The notes beneath the pieces are model-generated. The model saw only the letters and a program-made list of their open reading frames with translations, was not told the DNA's origin and made no database searches. DNA of 64,000 nt from Mobula hypostoma (lineage: Eukaryota): assembly GCF_963921235.1 (NCBI RefSeq), contig NC_086108.1:73534001-73598000 (forward strand). The letters run 5' to 3'. Positions 1 through 55,604 of this stretch are shown here, piece by piece. Made by a program: the position numbers and the translations under genes. How positions within the stretch are numbered: position 1 is the first letter of the stretch; every line of letters begins with the position of its first letter.

Positions 1-611
1 GCATTACTGAGAATGAAACAAACTATTAATTTAATATAGTATAGTAGAGTGTAAAGTCAAGTGGTAAAACAATCCAAATAATACCTTATGTGCGATGAAA
101 CACACTTTGCAAAATTTGACAAGTAAACTGCATCTCTTTACAGAGGCAATATCTATTTCCTGCTGGAATGCTTGCTTTCCTGCTGTAAATAATTTTAATG
201 TATGCCAGTTCTCCAGTGAGATCAAATGCTTTAGAAATATTAAGTCTTTGTGTTAGACTCACATTTGAATTTTAGAAACTCAGAATAGAGCTTGGCTAGA
301 AGATGTTGCCTCCAAAGGAAAAAACAACATCTAAACATAAATTAAATTGCTTAGTTTTCTCTGCTTCAGTGGAAAAAGCACTGGAATGTCAAATCTTTCT
401 TTATAACTAGTTTCTTGTCTCTGGCATTAGCCTCAAGTTCAATGCCATATATGCTCCATGGTTTTGATATTTTCATAAAATACTATTCCTAAGACTTGCA
501 CATAAAAATATAGTACACGTATCACCAAAGTCAATGTTAATCAGGCACTCAAGATCGATGTCGTCGTGGCTATCGCTCGAGGTCGAGGATAATTGTCTTC
601 GTTCTGTTGAT

Positions 612-3600
612 CTATTTATGGGCTCTCAAGTGGCTTATGAGTCCAATCTTGGCTTTGAAAGTTCTTCTGCATTCAGGACAGGTAGTTCCTGATGGCAAAT
701 CAGGCTTTGGTTGTTGCTGCCTCTCTTTCCATTTTCTTCTCTTTTCTTCTAATTCTGCACATCTGTTGACTTCAAAAGTTGCTGTTCCTTCTCGGATGAT
801 GGCTTGCCAGAGTTTCCTGTCCTTGGCATTGGTTTCCCAATTGTTGATGTCAATGTTACATTTCTTCATGTTGGCTTTTAAGACGTCTTTGAATCTCTTC
901 TGTTGTCCGCCTCTTTTACGTTTGCCTTCTTTAAGCTGGGAGTAGAAGATTCATTGCGGCAGACGTTCGTGTTTCATCCGAACAATATGACCACTCCATT
1001 TTAGTTGGTTTGTGATGGTGTAGGCTTCAATACTTGTTGTTTTTGCTTCACTTAGCATGCTGATGTCGGTTCTTCTATCTTCCCAGCTGATATTTAAGAT
1101 GTTTCGAAGACAGTGTTGATGGAACTTTTCAAGTGCCTTCAGATGTTGTCGGTATGTTGTCCAGGTTTCTGATGCACACAGGAGCGTTGGGATTACCACT
1201 GCTTTGTACACTAATATTTTGGTGTTTGTTCAGATGCCACGATCATGAAAGACTCTTGTTCGGAGATGTCCAAAAGCTGCTCCAGTGCATTTAAGACGAT
1301 GTTGGATCTCGTCATTAAGGTCGACATTGGAGGAGAGGTGATTTCCAAGATATGGAAAGTGGCCCACATTTTCCAGGGTTGCTTCACCAAATTGAATTAA
1401 TGGTTCTATCCGTTTTGTCTCAGTTGGTGATGGTTGATAGATGATCTGAGTCTTCTTGGAATTAATGGTGAGCCAAAGTTTCGTGTATGCACGGTTGAAG
1501 GCAGTCAGAATCTGTTGTAGGTGGTTTTCTGAAAGAGCTGCAACACTGTTATCATCTGCGTATTGGAACTAGATGAGGGAACTCGTGGATGTCTTCGTTT
1601 TGGATTTGAGACGGGCAAGATTGAAAAATCTGCCATCTATTCTGTAGATAATTTCGATTCCTGGGGGTAGATCGTCCTTGATAATGTGGATGCTTGTTGC
1701 AATGAAGATGGTGAACAAATTTGGGGCAATCAAGCATCCTTGTTTTACTCCTGATCTAACTTGAAAAGACTCACAGTTACTGTTGCTGACCATGACTGTG
1801 GCAAACATGCCATCGTGGAGGAGTCTCAGGATTCGAATGTACTTTTCAGGGCATCCATAGGTGGATAGGACATCCCATAGGAATTCGCTTGATACCGAGT
1901 CAAAGGCTTTGGTGAGGTCGATGAATGCCATGTACAAAGGTTAAAGTTGTTCACAACATTTTTCTTGTAGTTGTCGCATTGTGAAGATCATGTCGATTGC
2001 TCCACGTGATGGTCTAAAACCGGCTTGTATCTCTGGAAGGATCTTCTCAGCTAAAGGCTTGAGTCGGTTGTTCATGATGCGGGTGAGGATCTTTCCTGCT
2101 GTTGCTAACAGGGAAATTCCATGATAGTTTCCTCATTCGGATTGATCGCCTTTCCTTTTGTAGATGGTAACAATTGCTGAGACTCTAAAGTCTGCTGGTA
2201 CGTCTTCATTTATCCAGATCTTGATGAGAAGTTGATGCAGTTGATAATAAAGCAGATTACCTCCAATTTTGTAGACCTCAGCTGGTATTCCATCGAGTCC
2301 AGCGGCCTTGTTGTTTTTCAAGGTTTTGATGGCTTCCTTGACTTCTTCAAGTGTTGGTATTTTGCTTAGGGAGTCGTTTTGGAATGTTGGTGTTAATCAC
2401 ATTCCTGTCAAATGAGACGGTTTGATTTAGAAGATCTTCTAAGTGCTCCCTCCATCTAGAATTGATGTCAGCATTGCTCTTCAGGATGGTTGAGCCATCT
2501 TTGCTTTTGAGAGGGGCTTGACCATGAGTGGATGGGCCAAAAATAGCTTTAGTTGCATAGAAAAAGCCTCGAGTATCGTTGGCGTCTGCTAGTTGTTGGA
2601 TTTCCTGAGTTTTCTTCCTCCACCATTGGTTTTTCAGGTTTCAGGTGCTCTTCTGGACTGCAGCCTTGCATTCCTGATAGCATTTCCTTTTGGTAGCCGA
2701 TTGTTTTGTTGGTCATTTTGTAAGGTAATGAAAGCTTTTCTCTTTTCATCGATGAGTTGTTGGAGTAGTTTGTCATTGTCATCGAACTAATCCTGATGTT
2801 TTTTCATCTTGAACCCAATTGTTTCTTTGCAGGAGGTGATGATAGCGTTCTTCAATTGATTCCAGTGTTCTTCTACAGACGGTGGGATTTGTTGAGACAG
2901 TTGTTCTTGGAGATTTTGTTGGAACTTCTGTACATGACTGATGGCTTGAAGGATGTCAACATTAAATTTCTTAATAGTGTTCTGATTTGGGTGTTTCATT
3001 TTGGGCCGAATCTTCATTCTCATGGTGGACGAGATGAGTCGATGGTCTGCCCAGCACTCGTCGGCACCAGTAACAGCTTTTGTTATCAGTACACCTTGTT
3101 GGTCCTGAGATCGTACGATGATGTAGTTGATGAGGTGCCAGTGTTTGGAGTGTGGATGCTGCCAGGAGACTTAGTGCCAGTTTTTCTGGTGAAATAGGGT
3201 GTTTATAATCAACAGGTTGTGTTCAGCACATTTGGTGAGGAGGAGTGTTCCACTGGCATTGACTTTGCCAACTCCTTCCTTGCTTATTATTCCAGTCCAG
3301 CGCCTATGATCTTTCCCGACTCTGGCATTGAAGTCTCCCAAGAGAATGATCTTGTCGTTGTTGGGAACAGAGGAAAGGAGGGGGTCAAGCTGGGCGTAGA
3401 AGTTCATCTTTACTTCATCTTCAGCATCCAGATTTGGAGCATAGGCACTGATGATGGTGACGTGTTGGTTCTTGACAAGTTGGATTCTCAGAGTCATGAG
3501 GCATTCATTGATTCCCAGTGGTTGCTCTGTCAGCTTCTGAAGTAGGCTGTTTCAGATGGCAAAACCTACTCCATGGATCCTCGGTTGTTCAAGATCAAGT

Positions 3601-3794
3601 TCTTTCCAGAAAAAGATGTATTGACCTGGCTATTCCTTTAGTTGCCCTTCTCCAGCTCTGCAGGTCTCACTCAGAGCAACAATGTCAAAGTTGAATTTTT
3701 AGAGTCCCCAGGCAACAAAGGCAGTTCTCCTCTCTGGTCGGTCTGAGTTTGGGTTATCCATAAGAGTTCGTATATTCCAGGTTCCAAATTTCAT
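612..3794 (-). pseudogene. RTE ORF (EN-RT-zinc finger) broken by several stops and frameshifts
   Basis: ORF-track pieces 3171-3497, 2787-3023, 2133-2321, 1569-1937, 951-1211 and 612-869 are collinear RTE polyprotein segments in different frames. Confidence 0.92.
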
Positions 3795-4333
3795 AGTTTC
3801 ACTTCTCGATGTTTTTCGACCGCATGATGGTGATCCCTCTGGACGCAGCTTTCCAGACAGGATGGGGTGAAGCAGACTATTTTTAGGGCACCTTTTCTAG
3901 CCCCTTCCCAGTTCAGGGTGAGCAGAGTGGATCCTAAATAGGGCTGCTCAGATGTGAATACTGCTGCCGAACAACTTTCCTGCTTCTGTCCAAAAGTTGA
4001 GCGACTGAATCAAGTATTCACCGCTTTCGTGCCGGTTCTTGACTAGGAGCTTCCAGCCATCACATTGCCTGCTCCCGTCGCCCTCCCCCGATCGCTGAAA
4101 GACTTGAAGAATTGGCCCACAGAGCGAAGACGCCTGTGCGTGTATTTGTTTAACGTGTACTTGATGTTGCACTCCAAGAAGCACACGATACTTCACAAAT
4201 CAACCAATTGATTCCAATGGCATGGAAACCACGACAATTGGAGCTGATGGATTTGTTGCAGCCTTCATCCGTCTTCACAGCCATTGAGTTCGAAGTAACT
4301 TCGTCCGCCTGTTCCACCGTTGAGGTTTTGGTT

Positions 4334-4478
4334 GGATTGTTCTTTGTCAGGGACCTCACCCTCGACCTTACCGCCATGGGTGACCCTACCAGGAGCATAG
4401 CTCCAGACGGCATCACTCTCAGGATCTCAGGACCACACAAGCTTCTCCACCGTGACAAGGTGACAATCCATGGAGAAG
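4334..4478 (-). ncRNA. Candidate HDV-like self-cleaving ribozyme at the RTE 5' end
   Basis: Minus strand: P1 CTTCTCC/GGAGAAG; P2 GGATTGT/ACAATCC; P3 ACC/GGT closing a 7-nt loop TTGTCAC; long P4 region; J4/2-like GACAAA. The fold starts at the element boundary. HDV-like ribozymes are established in RTE 5' ends, but the core here is non-canonical. Confidence 0.55.
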
Positions 4479-4519
4479 TCTCAAGATATTGAATCACTAA
4501 ACAAGAGGTAGACCTCATT

Positions 4520-11931: not shown

Positions 11932-14406
11932 GAAAACAGGGACCCTTTGACCTATCAGGTCTGCCCTGGCCATCAAATGCCCACTTACATGTATCGTAAC
12001 CCCACATTATCATCATCTCCCCTCACCATTCAACCACACACTTACCAAGGAACCATAGAAAAACTACAGCACAGAAACAGGCCTTTTGGCCCTTCTCGGC
12101 TGTGCCGAACCATTTTCTGCCTAGTCCCACTGACCTGCACACGGACCATATCCCTCCATACACCTCCCATCCATGTATCTGTCCAATCTATTCTTAAATG
12201 TTAAAAAAGAACCCGCATTTACCACCTCGTCTGGTAGCTCATTCCACACTCCCACCACTCTCTGCATGAAGAAGCCCCCCCCCTAATGTTCCCTTTAAAT
12301 TTCTCCCCCCTCACCCTTAACCCATGTCCTCTAGTTTTTTTCTCCACTTGCCTCAGTGGAAAAAGCCTGCTTGCATTCACTCTATCTATACCCACCATAA
12401 TTTCATATACCTCTATCAAATCTCCCCTCATTCTTCTACGCTCCAGGGAATAAAGTCCTAACCTATTCAACCTTTCTCTGTAACTGAGTTTCTCAAGTCC
12501 CGGCAACATCCTTGTAAACCTTCTCTGCACTCTTTCAACCTTATTTATATCCTTCCTGTTATTTGGTGACCAAAACTAAACACAATACTCCAGATTCGGC
12601 CTCACCAATGCCTTATACAACCTCATCATAACATTCCAGCTCTTATACTCAATACTTTGATTAATAAAGGCCAATGTACCAAAAGCTCTCTTTGTGACCC
12701 TATCTACCTGTGACGCTACCTTTAGGGAATTTTGTATCTGTATTCCCAGATCCCTCTGTTCCATTGCATTCCTCAGTGCCTTACCATTAACCCTATATGT
12801 TCTACCTTGGTTTGTCCTTCCAACGTGCAATACCTCACACTTGTCTGTATTAAACTCCATCTGCCATTTTTCACCCATTTTTCCAGCTGGTCCAAGTCCT
12901 TCTGCAGGCTCTGAAAACCTTCCTTGCTGTCTACTACACCTCCAATCTTTGTATCATCAGCAAACTTGCTGATCCAATTTACCACATTATCATCCAGATC
13001 ATTGATATAGATGACAAATAACAATGGACCCAGCACTGATCCCTGTGGCACACCGCTAGTCACAGGCCTCCACTCGGAGAAGCAATTCTCTACTACCACT
13101 CTTTGGCTTCTTCCATTGAGCCAATGTCTAATCCAATTTACCACCTCTCCATGTATACCTAGCGACTGAATTTTCCTAACTAACCTCCCATGCAGGACCT
13201 TGTCAAAGGCCTTACTGAAGTCCATGTAGACAATATCCACTACCTTCCCTTCATCCACTTTCCTGGTAACCTCCTCAAAAAACTCCAATAGATTGGTCAA
13301 ACATGACCTACCACGCACAAAGCCATGTTGACTCTCCCTAATAAGTCCCTGTCTATCCAAATGCTTGTAGATTCTGTCTCTTAGTACTCCCTCCAATAAC
13401 TTACCTACTACCGACGTTAAACTTACTGGCCTATAATTTCCTGGATTACTTTTCGATCCTTTTTTAAACAACGGAACAACATGAGCCACTCTCCAATCCT
13501 CCGACACCTCACCTGTAGACAGCAACATTTTAAATATTTCTGCCAGGGCCCCCGCAATTTCAACACCAGTCTCCTTCAAGGTCCGAGGGAACACTCTGTC
13601 AGGTCCCGGGGATTTATCCACTTTAATTTTCCTCAAGACAGCAAGGACCTCCTCTTTTTCAATCTGTACAGTTTCCATGATCTCACTACTTGTTTCCCTT
13701 AATTCCATAGACTTCATGCCAGTTTCCTTAGTAAATACAGACGCAAAAAACCTATTTAAGATCTCCCCCACTTCCTTTGGTTCCGCACATAGCCGACCAT
13801 TCTGATCTTCAAGAGGACTAATTTTATCCCTTACAATCCTTTTGCTCTTAATATACCTGTAAAAGCTCTTTGGGTTATCCTTCACTTTGACTGCCAAGGC
13901 AACCTCATGTCTTCTTTTAGCCCTCCTGATTACTTTCTTAAGTATTTTCTTGCACTTCTTATACTCCTCAAGCACCTTATTTACTCCCTGCTTCCTATAC
14001 ATGTCATACAATTCCCTCTTCTTCTTTATCAGAGCTGCAATATCCCTTGAGTACCAAGGTTCCTTATTCCTATTCACTTTGCCTTTAGTCCTGACAGGAA
14101 CATACAAATTCTGCACTCTCAAAATTTCTCCTTTGAAGCCATCCCACCTACCGATCACATCCTTGCCAGAGAACAACCTGTCCCAACCTGTCCCATGGCA
14201 ATTTACAGTAGATAAGCAACCACAGTTACCTGTACAGCTTTCAGATGTAGAAGGGAACCAGAGGAAACCCAGACAGTCACAGAGAGAATGTGCAGACTCC
14301 ACATCGACAATGCCCAGACTCCACATCGACAATGCCCGACAGCAGGACTGAACCAAGTCTCCCGCACTGCGAGGCAGCATATCTAATTACACCCACTGTG
14401 CCACCC
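11932..14406 (-). mobile_element. V-SINE (11932-12050 and 14196-14406) split by a young CR1
   Basis: Antisense V-domain GAACCAGAGGAAACCCA..CACAGAGAGAATGTGCAGACTCCAC and tRNA head ending near 14406; 22-bp tandem duplication at 14293-14336. Confidence 0.75.
12051..14186 (-). mobile_element. Young CR1 LINE, 5'-truncated; same family as 22851-25968
   Basis: ORF2 from WDRLFSGK through RT (KSPGPD, YRPVSLTS, GVPQGSVLGP, KFADDTK); frameshift near 12880 and a stop at 12576; (GGTTTCTAT)-type tail; nearly identical to 23820-25950. Confidence 0.96.
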
Positions 14407-22850: not shown

Positions 22851-25800
22851 GGGGCAGGTGGGACCTGTACAAGAGAGACGGGTTACACTTGAACTACAGG
22901 GGGACCAATATCCTTTCAGGGAGGTTTGTTAGTGCTAATGGGGAGGCTTTAAACTAGATTTGCAGGGGGATGGGAACTAGAGTGCCAGAGCTGACAGTGT
23001 GGCTGGGGTGAAAATAAATGTTGAAAGTTCAAGCAAATCCGCTGATAGAAAGGTTGTGAGTGGTGGTAAAAATCTTCTGAGGTGTATATATTTCAATGCT
23101 AGGAGTATTGCGGCGAAGGCGGATGATTTGATGGCGTGGATTGACACGTGGAATTATGACGTTATAGCAATTATTGAAACTTGGCTACGGGAGGGGCAGG
23201 ACTGGCAGCTTAATATTCCAGGGTTCCGATGTTTCAGATGTGATCGAGGCAGAGGAATGAAAGGTGGGGGAGAAGCATTGCTTGTTAGGGAAAATATTAC
23301 AGCAGTGCTCAGGCAGGACAGATTAGAGGGCTTGTCTACTGAGTCCTTATGGGTGGAGCTGAGAAACAGGAAAGGTTTGGTCACATTAGTGGGATTGTAT
23401 TACAGACCACCCAATAGTCAACGAGACTTGGAAGAGCAAATCTGCAGAGAGATAGCAGGCAACTGCAGGAAACATAAAGTTGTGGTGATAGGGGATTTTA
23501 ATTTTCCATACATTAATTGGGACTCCCAAACTGTTAGGGGTCTAGATGGTTTACAGTTTGTAAAATGTGTTCAGGAAAGTTTTCTAAATCAATATATAGA
23601 AGGACCAACTAGAGGGGATGCAATATTGGATCTCCTGTTAGGAAACGAGTTAGGACAAGTGACGGAAGTCTGTGTAGGGGAGCACTTTGGCTCCAGTGAT
23701 CATAACACCATTAATTTCAATTTGATCATGGACGAGGATAGATCTGGTCCCAGGGTTGAGGCTCTGAACTGGAAGAAGGCCAAATTTGAAGAAATGAGAA
23801 AGGATCTAAAATGCATGGATTGGGACAGGTTGTTCTCTGGCAAAGATGTGATTGGTAGGTGGGAAGCCTTCAAAGGGGAGATTTTGAGAGTGCAGAGTTT
23901 GTATGTTCCTATCAGGATTAAAGGCAAATTGAATAGGAATAAGGAACCTTGGTTCTCAAGAGATATTGCAACTCTGATAAAGAAGAAGAGGGAGTTGAAT
24001 AAAATGTATAGGAAACAGGGAGTAAATCAGGTGCTTGAGGAGTATAAGAAGTGCAAGAAAATACTTAAGAAAGTAATCAGGAGGGCTAAAAGAAGACATG
24101 AGGTTGCCTTCGCAGTCAAAGTGAAGGATAATCCAAAGGGCTTTTACAGGTATATTAAGAGCAAAAGGATTGTAAGAGATAAAATTGGCCCTCTTGAAGA
24201 TCAGAGTGGTCAGCTATGTGCGGAACCAAAGGAAATGGGGGAGATCTTAAATAGGTTTTTTGCGTCTGTATTTACTAAGGAAACTGGCATGAAGTCTATG
24301 GAATTGAGGGAATCAAGTAGTGAGATCATGGAAACTGTACAGATTGAAAAGGAGGAGGTGCTTGCTGTCTTGAGGAAAATTAAAGTGGATAAATCCCCGG
24401 GACCTGACAAAGTGTTCCCTCAGACCTTGAAGGAGACTAGTGTTGAAATTGCGGGGGCCCTGGCAGAAATATTTAAAATGTCGCTGTCTACGGGTGAGGT
24501 GCCGGAGGATTGGAGAGTGGCTCATGTTGTTCCGTTGTTTAAAAAAGGATCGAAAAGTAATCCGGGAAATTATAGGCCAGTGAGTTTAATGTCGGTAGTA
24601 GGTAAGTTATTGGAGGGAGTACTAAGAGACAGAATCTACAAGCATTTGGATAGACAGGGACTTATTAGGGAGAGTCAACATGGCTTTGTGCGTGGTAGGT
24701 CATGTTTGACCAATCTATTGGAGTTTTTCGAGGAGGTTACCAGGAAAGTGGATGAAGGGAAGGCAATGGATATTGTCTACATGGATTTCAGTAAGACCTT
24801 TAACAAGGTCCCGCATGGGAGGTTAGTTAGGAAAATTCAGCCGCTAGGTATACATGGAGAGGTGGTAAATTGGATTAGACATTGGCTCAATGGAAGAAGC
24901 CAAAGAGTGGTAGTAGAGAATTGCTTCTCTGAGTGGAGGCCTGTGACTAGTGGTGTGCCACAGGGATCAGTGCTGGGTCCATTGTTATTTGTCATCTATA
25001 TCAATGATCTGGATGATAATGTGGTAAATTGGATCAGCAAATTTGCTGATGATACAAAGATTGGAGGTGTAGTAGACAGTGAGGAAGGTTTTCAGAGCCT
25101 GCAGAGGGACTTGGACCAGCTGGAAAAATGGGCTGAGAAATGGCAGATGGAGTTTAATACAGACAAGTGTGCGGTATTGCATGTTGGAAGGACAAACCAA
25201 GGTAGAACATACAGGGTTAATGGTAAGGCACTGAGGAGTGCAGTAGGACAGAGGGATCTGGGAATACAGATACAAAATTCCCTAAAAGTGGTGTCACAGG
25301 TAGATAGGGTCATAAAGAGAGCTTTTGGTACATTGGCCTTTATTAATCAAAGTATTGAGTATAAGAGCTGGAATGTTATGATGAGATTGTATAAGGCATT
25401 GGTGAGGCCGAATCTGGAGTATTGTGTTCAGTTTTGGTCACCAAATTACAGGAAGGATATAAATAAGGTTGAAAGAGTGCAGAGATAGTTTACAAGGATG
25501 TTGCCAGGACTTGAGAAACTCAGTTACAGAGAAAGGTTGAATAGGTTAGGACTTTATTCCCTGGAGCGTAGAAGAATGAGGGGAGATTTGATAGAGGTAT
25601 ATAGAATTATGATGGGTATAGATAGAGTGAATGCAAGCAGGCTTTTTCCACTGAGGCAAGGGGAGAAAAAAAACCAGAGGACATGGGTTAAGGGTGAGGG
25701 GGGAAAAGTTTAAAGGGAACATTAGCGGGGGGCTTCTTCACACAGAGAGTGGTGGGAGTATGGAATGAGCTGCCAGATGAGGTGATAAATGCGGGTTCTT

Positions 25801-25968
25801 TTTTAACATTTAATAATAAATTGGACAGATACATGGATGGGAGGTGTATGGAGGGATATGGTCCGTGCGCAGGTCAGTGGGACTAGGCAGAAAATGGTTC
25901 GGCACAGCCAAGAAGGGCCAAAAGGCCTGTTTCTGTGCTATAGTTTCTATGGTTTCTACGGTTTCTAT
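22851..25968 (+). mobile_element. Young CR1 LINE with ORF1 3' end and near-complete ORF2, inserted in the BEL integrase
   Basis: ORF1 SGNH-esterase end (WDLYKRDGLHLNYRGTNIL, stop 22955-57), ORF2, 3' UTR and (GGTTTCTAT)n tail; the BEL frame rejoins across 22850/25969. Confidence 0.97.
22999..25488 (+). CDS. CR1 ORF2 endonuclease-reverse transcriptase, 829 aa open, ending at a premature stop
   Basis: YFNARSI, ETWL, YYRPP, GDFN, SDH (APE) and YRPVSL, QHGF, GVPQGSVLGP, FADDTK (RT). TAG at 25486-88 replaces AGG seen in the sister copy; the C-terminus continues at 25498-25713. Confidence 0.9.
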   Translation: MAGVKINVESSSKSADRKVVSGGKNLLRCIYFNARSIAAKADDLMAWIDTWNYDVIAIIETWLREGQDWQLNIPGFRCFRCDRGRGMKGGGEALLVRENITAVLRQDRLEGLSTESLWVELRNRKGLVTLVGLYYRPPNSQRDLEEQICREIAGNCRKHKVVVIGDFNFPYINWDSQTVRGLDGLQFVKCVQESFLNQYIEGPTRGDAILDLLLGNELGQVTEVCVGEHFGSSDHNTINFNLIMDEDRSGPRVEALNWKKAKFEEMRKDLKCMDWDRLFSGKDVIGRWEAFKGEILRVQSLYVPIRIKGKLNRNKEPWFSRDIATLIKKKRELNKMYRKQGVNQVLEEYKKCKKILKKVIRRAKRRHEVAFAVKVKDNPKGFYRYIKSKRIVRDKIGPLEDQSGQLCAEPKEMGEILNRFFASVFTKETGMKSMELRESSSEIMETVQIEKEEVLAVLRKIKVDKSPGPDKVFPQTLKETSVEIAGALAEIFKMSLSTGEVPEDWRVAHVVPLFKKGSKSNPGNYRPVSLMSVVGKLLEGVLRDRIYKHLDRQGLIRESQHGFVRGRSCLTNLLEFFEEVTRKVDEGKAMDIVYMDFSKTFNKVPHGRLVRKIQPLGIHGEVVNWIRHWLNGRSQRVVVENCFSEWRPVTSGVPQGSVLGPLLFVIYINDLDDNVVNWISKFADDTKIGGVVDSEEGFQSLQRDLDQLEKWAEKWQMEFNTDKCAVLHVGRTNQGRTYRVNGKALRSAVGQRDLGIQIQNSLKVVSQVDRVIKRAFGTLAFINQSIEYKSWNVMMRLYKALVRPNLEYCVQFWSPNYRKDINKVERVQR

Positions 25969-52477: not shown

Positions 52478-53747
52478 GTAGATGACTGGTTTCAAAAGAA
52501 ACTTCACTGTATATTTATATGATGCAAGAAGCAATTTATTGTATATTTATATCACAGCTCCCAGCAGTGAGGAATCTGCCCCATTTATATTGCAGGGTAA
52601 TTTTCACAGTGCCTCATTAACAATTGTGCTTTTGATTCCTTGCTTGCAGAGCTTCCCCTGATGACTGCCTGATCCTTCATAAATGTGATTCCTTGCCATT
52701 TTCTCCCCTCCAAAGGTCATACGTCTATTTAATATTCATCAGCAAATTGCTTTCTACACCAAAAAAATTAAGTAACATTTCTGGCCTCTTTCAAATAGTT
52801 TGCATGAATTTGTTCACGTTGATGATTTCAAAGCACTTTGGTTTTTGAAATATGGTGCAAGAAATCTAGGCAGCGTTATTGTCAGCAAAAATAACTATTT
52901 AGAGCTATTTAAAAAATGTAAATTTGATTCATTTCCTTCCCTAAAGAGAATTTTGGTGATGGATTAAATGGTAATTCCATAAAAGTTGTTCTAAAATTCC
53001 CGTTGTTTGCCTGAAGCTAATTAATACTATTGAATTCATTGAAACCAGCTTGGGATTCAGTTGCAATGTTGTGCCATGCTGGTGACAACAGCAGGTTTTC
53101 TCGCTCCCTTGAATGAATAATCAGTTCATTTCTTCCACTTGTCAAACCAAAAGTCATTAAAGGGCCTCAGTGGAAGAGGAAAAGATGGGAAAATAGAACA
53201 CCTGAAATGAAGCTTCTCCTACACCAGCTTGTACCAGAACCGAGAGAGTTGGGAGGTGAATAAGTACAAATGGCAGATCTCCACAGTGGCAGACAGATAA
53301 ACACATTTAATAAACAAACTGGTCTAGATGAGTCTTAAACTCAGTAGTGTCTGGTTGAAAATAATGAAAGAAGTTATAGCACAGAGCTCAGCATATACCT
53401 GAGCCACCTTGGCCACAGCTGCCCTTGTGCCACCAACTATTACAAAAGGCTGCCTGCTCAGGCTTGAGGGGGTCTACATCAAGGTAATAAACAGCTAACT
53501 GGAAACCTTTGCCAACTACTGCAAGAGGAATTGACAATGAATCAGTGAAATTGATAAAGCATCAATGATTGTTGTCAACATTCATAAATTTACTTATCTA
53601 GCTCAGTGGCCACCTTATTGAATACCTTCTGTACCTTATCAAGTGGCCACTGAGTGGATGTTCGCAGTCTCCAGCTGCTGGAGCCCATCTACTTCAAGGA
53701 TCAACATCTTGTGTACTTGGAGATGCTTTTCTGCACACCACTGTTGT

Positions 53748-54185
53748 CGTCGTCATGGCTATCCCTCGAGGTCGCGGATGATGGTCTTCATCCTGAAGAA
53801 GTGGCCCACAGAGCGAAGACGTCTATGCGTGTATTTGTTTAACGTGTACTTGATGTTGCACTCCAAGAAGCACACGATACTTCACAAATCAACCAATTGA
53901 TTCCAATGGCATGGAAACCACGGCGATTGGAGCTGATGGATTTGTTGCAGCCTTCATCCGCCTTCACAGCCGTTGAGTTCGAAGTAACTTCATCCGCCTG
54001 TTCCACCATTGAGGTCTTGGTTGGATTGTTGTTTGTCAGGGACCTCACCCTCGACCTTACCGTCATGGGTGACCCTACCAGGAGCATAGCTCCAGACGAC
54101 ATTGCTCTCGGGATCACAGGACCACACAAGCTTCTCCACCACGACAAGGTGACAATCCACGGAGAAGCTTGTGTGTAATGACAAT
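53748..54185 (-). mobile_element. Bipartite non-autonomous RTE derivative (5' head plus 3' tail)
   Basis: 53795-54167 matches RTE 4105-4478; 53748-53795 matches RTE 560-606; 10-bp TSD CCACTGTTGT at 53738-47 and 54186-95. Confidence 0.93.
54023..54167 (-). ncRNA. Second copy of the candidate HDV-like ribozyme
   Basis: Same 145-nt span and same P1, P2 and P3 pairings as 4334-4478; loop TTGTCGT resembles the CPEB3 L3 loop TTCACGT. Confidence 0.55.
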
Positions 54186-55604
54186 CCACTGTTGTAATGT
54201 GTGGCTATTTGAGTTACTGTTGCCTTCCTGTTAGCTTGAACCATTCTGGCTGTTCTCCTTTGACCTCTCTCATTAACAAGGTGTTTTTGCCCACAGAACT
54301 GCCACGCACTGGATGTTTTTTGTTGTTTTGTTTGCACTGTTATCTGTAAACTCTAGATACTGTTGTGCATGAAATTCTATGATTTCTGAGATACTTAAAC
54401 CACCCTGTCTGGCACCGACAATCATTCAACAGTCAAATTTCTTCCCCATTCTGATGTTTAGTCTGAACAACAACTGAACCTCTAGGGCATGTCTGCATGT
54501 TTTATGCCTTGAATTGCTGTCACATGATTGGATAATTACATATTTGCATTACAAGGTGTTCCTCTGTACCTAATAAAGTGGCGACTGAGTGTATAATCAT
54601 ATATATGTCAAATATATCGAACAAGTGAAAAAATTTAATCTTCTGTACTAAACAACATGATATGGGTATCCAATTCAACTACAATAATGAGCATGCATGG
54701 ATTTGGAGGTAATCTATTAGTTGGATAAGGAATTAGTTGGGAGGCAGGAATCAGAAAGCAAAGATAATTAATGTTAACAAGATGTATTTAGTAGTATCCT
54801 TTAGAATATATACCGGGGGGGGGGGGGTTAACTTTCGCTATTTGGTTGAAAGAACAAAGAGCCATTTATCCATATTTCTGAAAATATATACTATCCTCAG
54901 TGAAGTTGAATCTGAGGTCCACAGAAAAATAATATGTAATAAATCAGTTAATTTTTTAAAAATCATAAACTAGATATTCATTGGCTTGCATTTGGAAAGG
55001 CTAATCTAAGGATTTTCAAGGTGATCAAAGAAGCTTATAGGAGAGATAGGGACAAACTATTTTCTTTGATGTTCAGAAACAGGACTCTAAAATTTGAATT
55101 TTAGATAAAAAGAGAATCATCTTAATGCCTGATGCATCCAATGAATACAGGCAAACTGATCCGATGGCTGATCTTTCATGGTCTCCATTGGGCATGAGTG
55201 GAATCCCCAAAGGTTTCGAAACTGCATGTGAATTATTCAGTTACATTCTAAATCCTCGAGGCATGGGAGCATGATTAATAATTAAAATTAGAGAACCAAT
55301 ACTTAACCCTAGAGTTTACAGCAGGGGCTTCCACAATTTAAATGGGTGACATCAGTATGGCATGTTAAACAACTGAGAGAAGTCACAGCACCAATGGCTT
55401 CCCTGTGATCCTAATTCTACATGAAAGCTTGGATTGAATTTTAATTCAGGATTTACATTATATAATCCAAGACCATCTAGTAATCTGATACTGTTTAGGA
55501 ACATTCTGCCCTAGATCCTCTGTTACTCCTTTTCCTGCAGCTGTTACTGCATTAGAGCATAGAATAGAACAGTACAGTATGGGAAAAGGCCCTTTGACTC
55601 ACAA

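Follow-up and report, generated by a model that had tools for sequence, protein, structure and literature searches.

Bipartite, ORF-less derivatives of RTE elements have been catalogued under the names RTE-N2_Lch, RTESINE1/2, WALLSI3, MAR4_MD and Bov-A, the first of them being made of 214 + 70 bp of its parent (Kojima, 2018; PMC5786205). According to the same source, bipartite elements keep the true 5' end, a property which Kojima ties to ribozymes, and it is unknown why only some LINE clades yield internally deleted derivatives. The ribozyme L1TcRz is described as cleaving at position +1, also within NARTc, and as having a P1.1 of a single pair which can be disrupted by G at -1; its first base, as read from its primers, is C (PMC3185411). 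The core of the R2 ribozymes is reported to vary widely (PMC3774820), one review calls G1 invariant in HDV-like ribozymes (PMC8495972), and the ribozyme-headed precedents are covered by another (PMC6765202).

The window analyzed in this work, a stretch of 64,000 nt from the genome of Mobula hypostoma, contains both a 420-nt element of the bipartite kind and a full-length but broken copy of its parent LINE (Table 1). The sequence-only reading of this locus had described the short element as some 370 nt of an RTE 5' UTR fused at a TG microhomology to the last 48 nt or so, with about 3.5 kb including the whole ORF gone, no tRNA head and its own 10-bp TSD within a Tc1 element, and it had referred to Bov-A as a known derivative of this type. 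The existence of such derivatives is documented in the catalogue cited above (PMC5786205), and the structural claims were upheld: the head corresponds to nt 1–374 of the RTE at 556–4479, the TG is present in the window's long copy at both 4105–4106 and 605–606, and 3,500 nt between the joint positions are absent from the short copy. ARAGORN found no tRNA, so the tRNA head that defines a tRNA-derived SINE is missing, and the head is wholly LINE-derived. The tail showed an 85% match to the end of the window's long copy and, private substitutions aside, was identical in an alignment to the 3' end common to 25 long tails. When the flanks of the insert were rejoined, they aligned through the insertion site to three other copies of the host TIR element within the 64-kb window; this ~550-bp element is presumably Tc1-like. 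In Rfam the element had no match above the gathering score and matched no HDV-type family; eight weak matches, all below that score, were read as chance.

The parent copy encodes Exo_endo_phos_2 and RVT_1 domains, both above the Pfam cut-off and in one coding region, and a C-terminal C2H2 below the cut-off, while stops are present in all frames (28–61 per frame). It is probably of the RTE type, as judged by its architecture and a shared UTR motif and not by an RT tree: a head motif is present in the RTE-derived sequences of the Kojima supplement (PMC5786205), where three of the four queries made with head and tail motifs of the family had no match. The expectation that the cis requirements could be read directly from the pair of copies in the window had to be abandoned because the long copy is broken, and two copies alone do not suffice for this.

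Between its head and the right TSD the window copy carries a 5' extension of 18 nt that was absent from the earlier reading, composed of an inverted copy of nt 38–45, three other nucleotides and a repeat of nt 12–18. Among 60 copies examined, no other was flagged as having a fold-back, so the extension is atypical; it likely resulted from fold-back of the cDNA followed by re-priming. A search of the openly accessible literature for snap-back 5' junctions returned nothing on point. Elsewhere in the window, a 2.1-kb inverted pair with 95% identity (12048–14186 and 23820–25957) probably represents two copies of a young repeat.

Table 1. Features of the bipartite element, its insertion site and the parent copy in the window (element nt are counted from the 5' end of the element).
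Feature	Position	Strand	Basis
Full-length, broken copy of the parent APE-RT LINE (RTE type)	556..4479	-	Pfam domains; stops
8-bp TSD of the parent copy	548-555 and 4480-4487	.	sequence
Host ~550-bp TIR element, split by the insert	53600..54596	.	Tc1-like by its ends
TSD, left copy, 10 bp, CCACTGTTGT	53738..53747	+	sequence
Bipartite non-autonomous RTE copy, 420 nt	53748..54167	-	head match, tail match, exact junction matches
Tail, last ~48 nt of parent, GAC/GAT repeats at end	53748..53795	-	sequence alignment
Head-tail junction, 2-nt microhomology (TG on +)	53794..53795	-	sequence
Head, nt 1-374 of parent RTE 5' UTR	53794..54167	-	94.7% over 374 nt to 4105-4478
Head arm nt 348-360, complementary to the tail's first 13 nt	53808..53820	-	just 5' of clustered breakpoints
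Second head arm nt 111-123, complementary to the tail's next 13 nt	54045..54057	-	two-helix score
Predicted HDV-like fold, element nt 1-146	54022..54167	-	Watson-Crick pairs in both window copies; covariation
P1, first pair C-G (C1-G37)	element nt 1-7/31-37	-	predicted fold
P2	element nt 9-16/139-146	-	predicted fold
P3; L3 (7 nt)	element nt 18-20/28-30; 21-27	-	predicted fold
P1.1, single pair	element nt G23-C38	-	predicted fold
J4/2, C-A-A-A, predicted catalytic C133 (window 54035)	54032..54035	-	C in 52/52 aligned heads covering the position
Copy-specific 5' extension, 18 nt, between head and TSD	54168..54185	-	sequence
TSD, right copy, 10 bp, CCACTGTTGT	54186..54195	+	sequence

The search with the junction that had been proposed as a check for amplification gave a clear answer: the junction 23-mer had 883 exact matches in the Mobula hypostoma genome, the long form at the same head position 79, the long-type tail 634 and the head anchor 1180, with control values of 0 throughout; these counts are lower bounds and, the pattern lengths being different, their ratios are rough. 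All 40 scored matches of a junction-spanning query (1734 candidates) crossed the junction, and each of the 30 fetched loci was a head-tail fusion with the identical joint. In a sample anchored in the head and blind to the junction (the first 30 copies), the main joint was found in 20 copies, its close variants in two and other head-tail joints in six; one copy had a head-to-ORF joint, one had no tail and none was continuous at full length. TSD-like repeats of 7–14 bp, of which some 7-mers may be chance, were present in 38 of the 53 copies with a script-located tail (60 examined). Short copies truncated at the 5' end and bounded by TSDs also occur, and the flanks differ between copies. A one-off deletion within an inserted full-length RTE, a reading in whose favor no point was found, is refuted by the 883 exact junction copies with different flanks and TSDs, and its chance is practically nil. 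The 420-nt element is thus confirmed as a member of a real, amplified family of protein-less bipartite elements: its 5' part derives from the 5' end of the parent and is joined to the extreme 3' end without an ORF, and the shared junction, distinct TSDs, 5' truncations and repeat tail mark its amplification as a unit by retrotransposition.

The non-CpG divergence from the own majority in samples of top hits was 2.2% for the short and 2.4% for the long copies. Head variants at element nt 27, 36, 52 and 65 segregate in both forms and the tails are the same, in agreement with the earlier identification of the RTE family at 556–4479 as the partner; the shared tail together with the similar divergence suggests that the short form may be trans-mobilized by the parent protein. 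The sharing of variants suggests several founders or an exchange of heads, and because of it no subfamily split was drawn between short and long copies; such a split had been considered, and only two sites reached p<0.05. Antisense RTE sequence was present directly upstream of the head in five of 30 long copies, as judged by eye, which is as expected for twin-priming 5' inversions.

The head can be folded into nested P1, P2 and P3 helices, Watson-Crick paired throughout in the short and the long copy of the window, with a long P4 region (~90 nt) and with a C, presumably the catalytic one, in a C-N-A-A J4/2 directly before P2. P1.1 is formed by one G23-C38 pair plus U-U, at positions fixed by the search pattern. 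The core pattern was found in 87 metagenome stretches, of which 86 remained once a truncated locus had been set aside; these were split by a profile built on the interior only into 53 RTE-like and 33 not RTE-like, with all 12 RTE ORF hits in the RTE-like group, and removal of duplicates left 39 distinct RTE-like heads and 27 non-RTE controls. In the 39 heads, P1 and P2 paired better with their own than with swapped partners (0 of 2000 permutations each, relatedness among the heads being ignored), and the same test gave 217 and 1232 of 2000 in the controls. The outer P3 pair was kept in 32 of the 39 heads, in A-U, G-C and G-U forms. Because the pattern itself prescribed L3, the P1.1 region and J4/2, it would be circular to count their conservation among the metagenome stretches as evidence. 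The HDV-like fold noticed in the first reading of the head is well supported by the covariation of P1 and P2. A fold that placed G1 at about nt 69 was considered first and discarded, as the copies begin ~68 nt farther upstream, and three pattern matches in viral contigs were not RTE-head-like. At element nt 137 (window 54031), beside J4/2, the base is G in 50 of 52 heads but C in the window's short copy, which may be less active than its sister copies.

The core of the fold departs from the canonical HDV/CPEB3 type, in which position 1 is G: of 26 well-paired heads, 25 have C1, and a P1.1 of two pairs, as in canonical HDV, is lacking. The head was therefore filed with the L1TcRz type, which also starts with C. 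L3 is complementary over 5 bp to the segment bearing C133, and this competing, non-catalytic L3-J4/2 fold is the MFE of the window's long copy (-52.6 vs -48.9 kcal/mol). A register pairing G(-1) with C38 is disfavored, nt -1 being G in 10 of 31 copies and in one of 26 heads. The view that only a ribozyme-like head had been retained besides the tail holds in part: the fold is whole, but it accounts for just 146 nt of the 374-nt head, and the other 228 nt of 5' UTR have been retained both here and in all independent deletions that were sampled.

The same HDV-like topology was observed in a second, more diverged RTE family of the Mobula hypostoma genome (family 2), which had 297 pattern matches in the genome; 26 of 30 loci were used. 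Its P1 and P2 differ in sequence from those of the first family (family 1), its copies likewise begin at nt 1 of P1, where conservation sets in exactly, the sequence before that point being random, and nt 1 is C in 21 of 26. The commonest J4/2, found without a J4/2 constraint, was CTAA (10 of 26, with six not located). Bipartite forms of ~310–420 nt with TAAG tails are abundant (1039 exact tail matches), making up 26 of 30 tail-anchored copies. Eight loci in the same genome belong to other diverged RTE head lineages. In the metagenome, TSD-bounded short RTE-like elements of ~270–550 nt with the same head were seen at six loci and would represent bipartite forms in other organisms.

In family 1, 36 of 60 copies begin precisely with the first nucleotide of P1 and 42 of 60 within 3 nt of it. 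No single untemplated G, the signature of a capped 5' end, was present at 21 full-length TSD-bounded starts, which is a weak point in favor of cleavage. T at nt -1 (16 of 31 copies in family 1 and 16 of 26 in family 2) was not taken as evidence for a ribozyme because this base would lie outside the cut RNA. On these data, and with L1TcRz and the variable R2 cores as precedents for a non-canonical core, the head is predicted to self-cleave 5' of nt 1, which we regard as fairly likely despite the missing G1 and the competing fold. Alternatively, with the same family and partner, the 5' end would be a Pol II start set by an internal promoter, and the fold would be protective or protein-binding and not cutting. 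The non-canonical core and the competing fold are compatible with that, as are the retention of 228 nt past the fold in every sampled bipartite copy, which would be expected of a promoter, and the suggestion by Kojima that bipartite LINEs are transcribed by Pol II (PMC5786205); yet two families that differ in sequence both have their starts at nt 1 of P1, the CTAA J4/2 of family 2 is HDV-like and breaks the competing pairing, and L1TcRz is described as promoter and ribozyme both (PMC3185411), which leaves the Pol II start an unlikely explanation.

The positions of the joints bear on the origin of the deletions. Five of the six other joints in the junction-blind sample break at nt 360–369 and one at 420, and they rejoin within the last ~45–75 nt of the parent; further joints were found at window 4113–4123 in contigs of four organisms, in which the head depth was much higher than the ORF depth, contig depth not being equal to copy number. 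Two head arms are complementary to consecutive segments of the tail (Table 1). When 1272 windows of the long copy were compared, the part of the tail adjoining the breakpoints on their 3' side paired best with nt 340–366, at -18.2 kcal/mol vs -12.0 for the best site elsewhere among those listed, and the two-arm scores of the head were 12.5 and 10.5 vs at most 8.5 and 7.5 in nine ORF windows. The two-helix score was reached by 10, 11 and 73 per 1000 shuffled tails in three long copies and by 223 per 1000 in the window's short copy; for the single helix, 6 of 200 shuffles reached the score, and 40 of 100 did so when duplex energy was the measure. In a swap test with 11 elements, one of three tail windows passed (50, 2554 and 4477 of 20000), the tail windows being misplaced for family 1. 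Family 2 has an unrelated helix in similar placement, with 65 and 118 of 1000 shuffles reaching the score. Support for a head-tail helix is modest, and the deletions appear to have recurred independently, with breakpoints beside such a helix, in two RTE families. A search of the openly accessible literature for published RTE 5'-3' pairing gave nothing on point.

The clustering of breakpoints may instead reflect selection: DNA repair or random template jumps would produce deletions at any position, of which only those that retain ~360 nt of the UTR and ~45 nt of the tail would amplify. We give this close to an even chance, with the helix statistics being weak, the minor joints possibly representing small amplified subfamilies, and recombination followed by trimming being favored by Eickbush and Eickbush for the SIDEs (PMC3414825). 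Against it, the joints vary by copy and yet lie immediately past the 3' end of the head arm and immediately before the 5' end of the tail arm, a placement seen in family 1 and in seven of the 30 tail-anchored copies of family 2, where the joint comes just after the arm.

As a whole, the data are probably best explained by an amplified bipartite RTE parasite with a predicted ribozyme head and, less surely, a pairing-guided origin. A copy would be transcribed from a host or internal promoter, the fold would cut the RNA 5' of C1, the RTE protein would bind the shared tail and prime reverse transcription at a nick, and copying would stop at C1. The origin is the least sure part: in a full-length RNA the tail would pair with nt 348–360 of the 5' UTR with the ORF looped out, and the reverse transcriptase, after ~50 nt, would jump the loop in a manner likened to the formation of defective-interfering RNAs, creating head-tail fusions repeatedly, one founder of which would have amplified most. 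Such a helix-guided origin is plausible, at somewhat less than an even chance. In its general form, that RTE RNAs are closed by pairing of the 3' tail with the distal 5' UTR and that miniatures are born repeatedly as the reverse transcriptase jumps the ORF, the proposal is tentative; if true, it would account for the bipartite parasites and SINE bodies that RTE gives rise to and most LINE clades do not.

With its high copy number and low age (2–4% diverged), the family lends itself to testing a putative C1-type HDV-like ribozyme, whose cut site is predicted to the base, in a large animal genome. A single genome provides many independent deletions for comparison, so that the question of LINE clades raised by Kojima (PMC5786205) becomes testable, and minimal RTE templates are relevant to the two-RNA gene-writing systems described as built on RTE UTRs (PMC13708176).

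Compared with the known systems, the family is closest in composition to the RTE-N/Bov-A kind, likewise consisting of 5' UTR and extreme 3' end without ORF and tRNA head; the available text of Kojima (2018) names no head-tail helix (PMC5786205). It may have been named already in Repbase or Dfam. HDV-like ribozymes at the 5' end of RTE elements, with cleavage at the 5' junction, were reported by Ruminski et al. (2011), according to papers citing that work. The R2 SIDEs of Drosophila likewise combine a ribozyme head with a 3' UTR and are trans-mobilized, but they are described as rDNA-specific, rare, old and dependent on an RLE-type protein (PMC3414825), in contrast to the dispersed, abundant and recurrently formed elements found here. 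NARTc/RIME with L1TcRz are likewise dispersed and have an APE-type parent (PMC3185411, PMC4035085), with the difference that L1TcRz belongs to the Ingi clade and has a compact 77-nt fold, whereas the head described here is of RTE, carries a P4 of ~90 nt and is a predicted ribozyme. The family is, therefore, one more bipartite RTE, of a design already described for the RTE-N families, the R2 SIDEs and NARTc/RIME.
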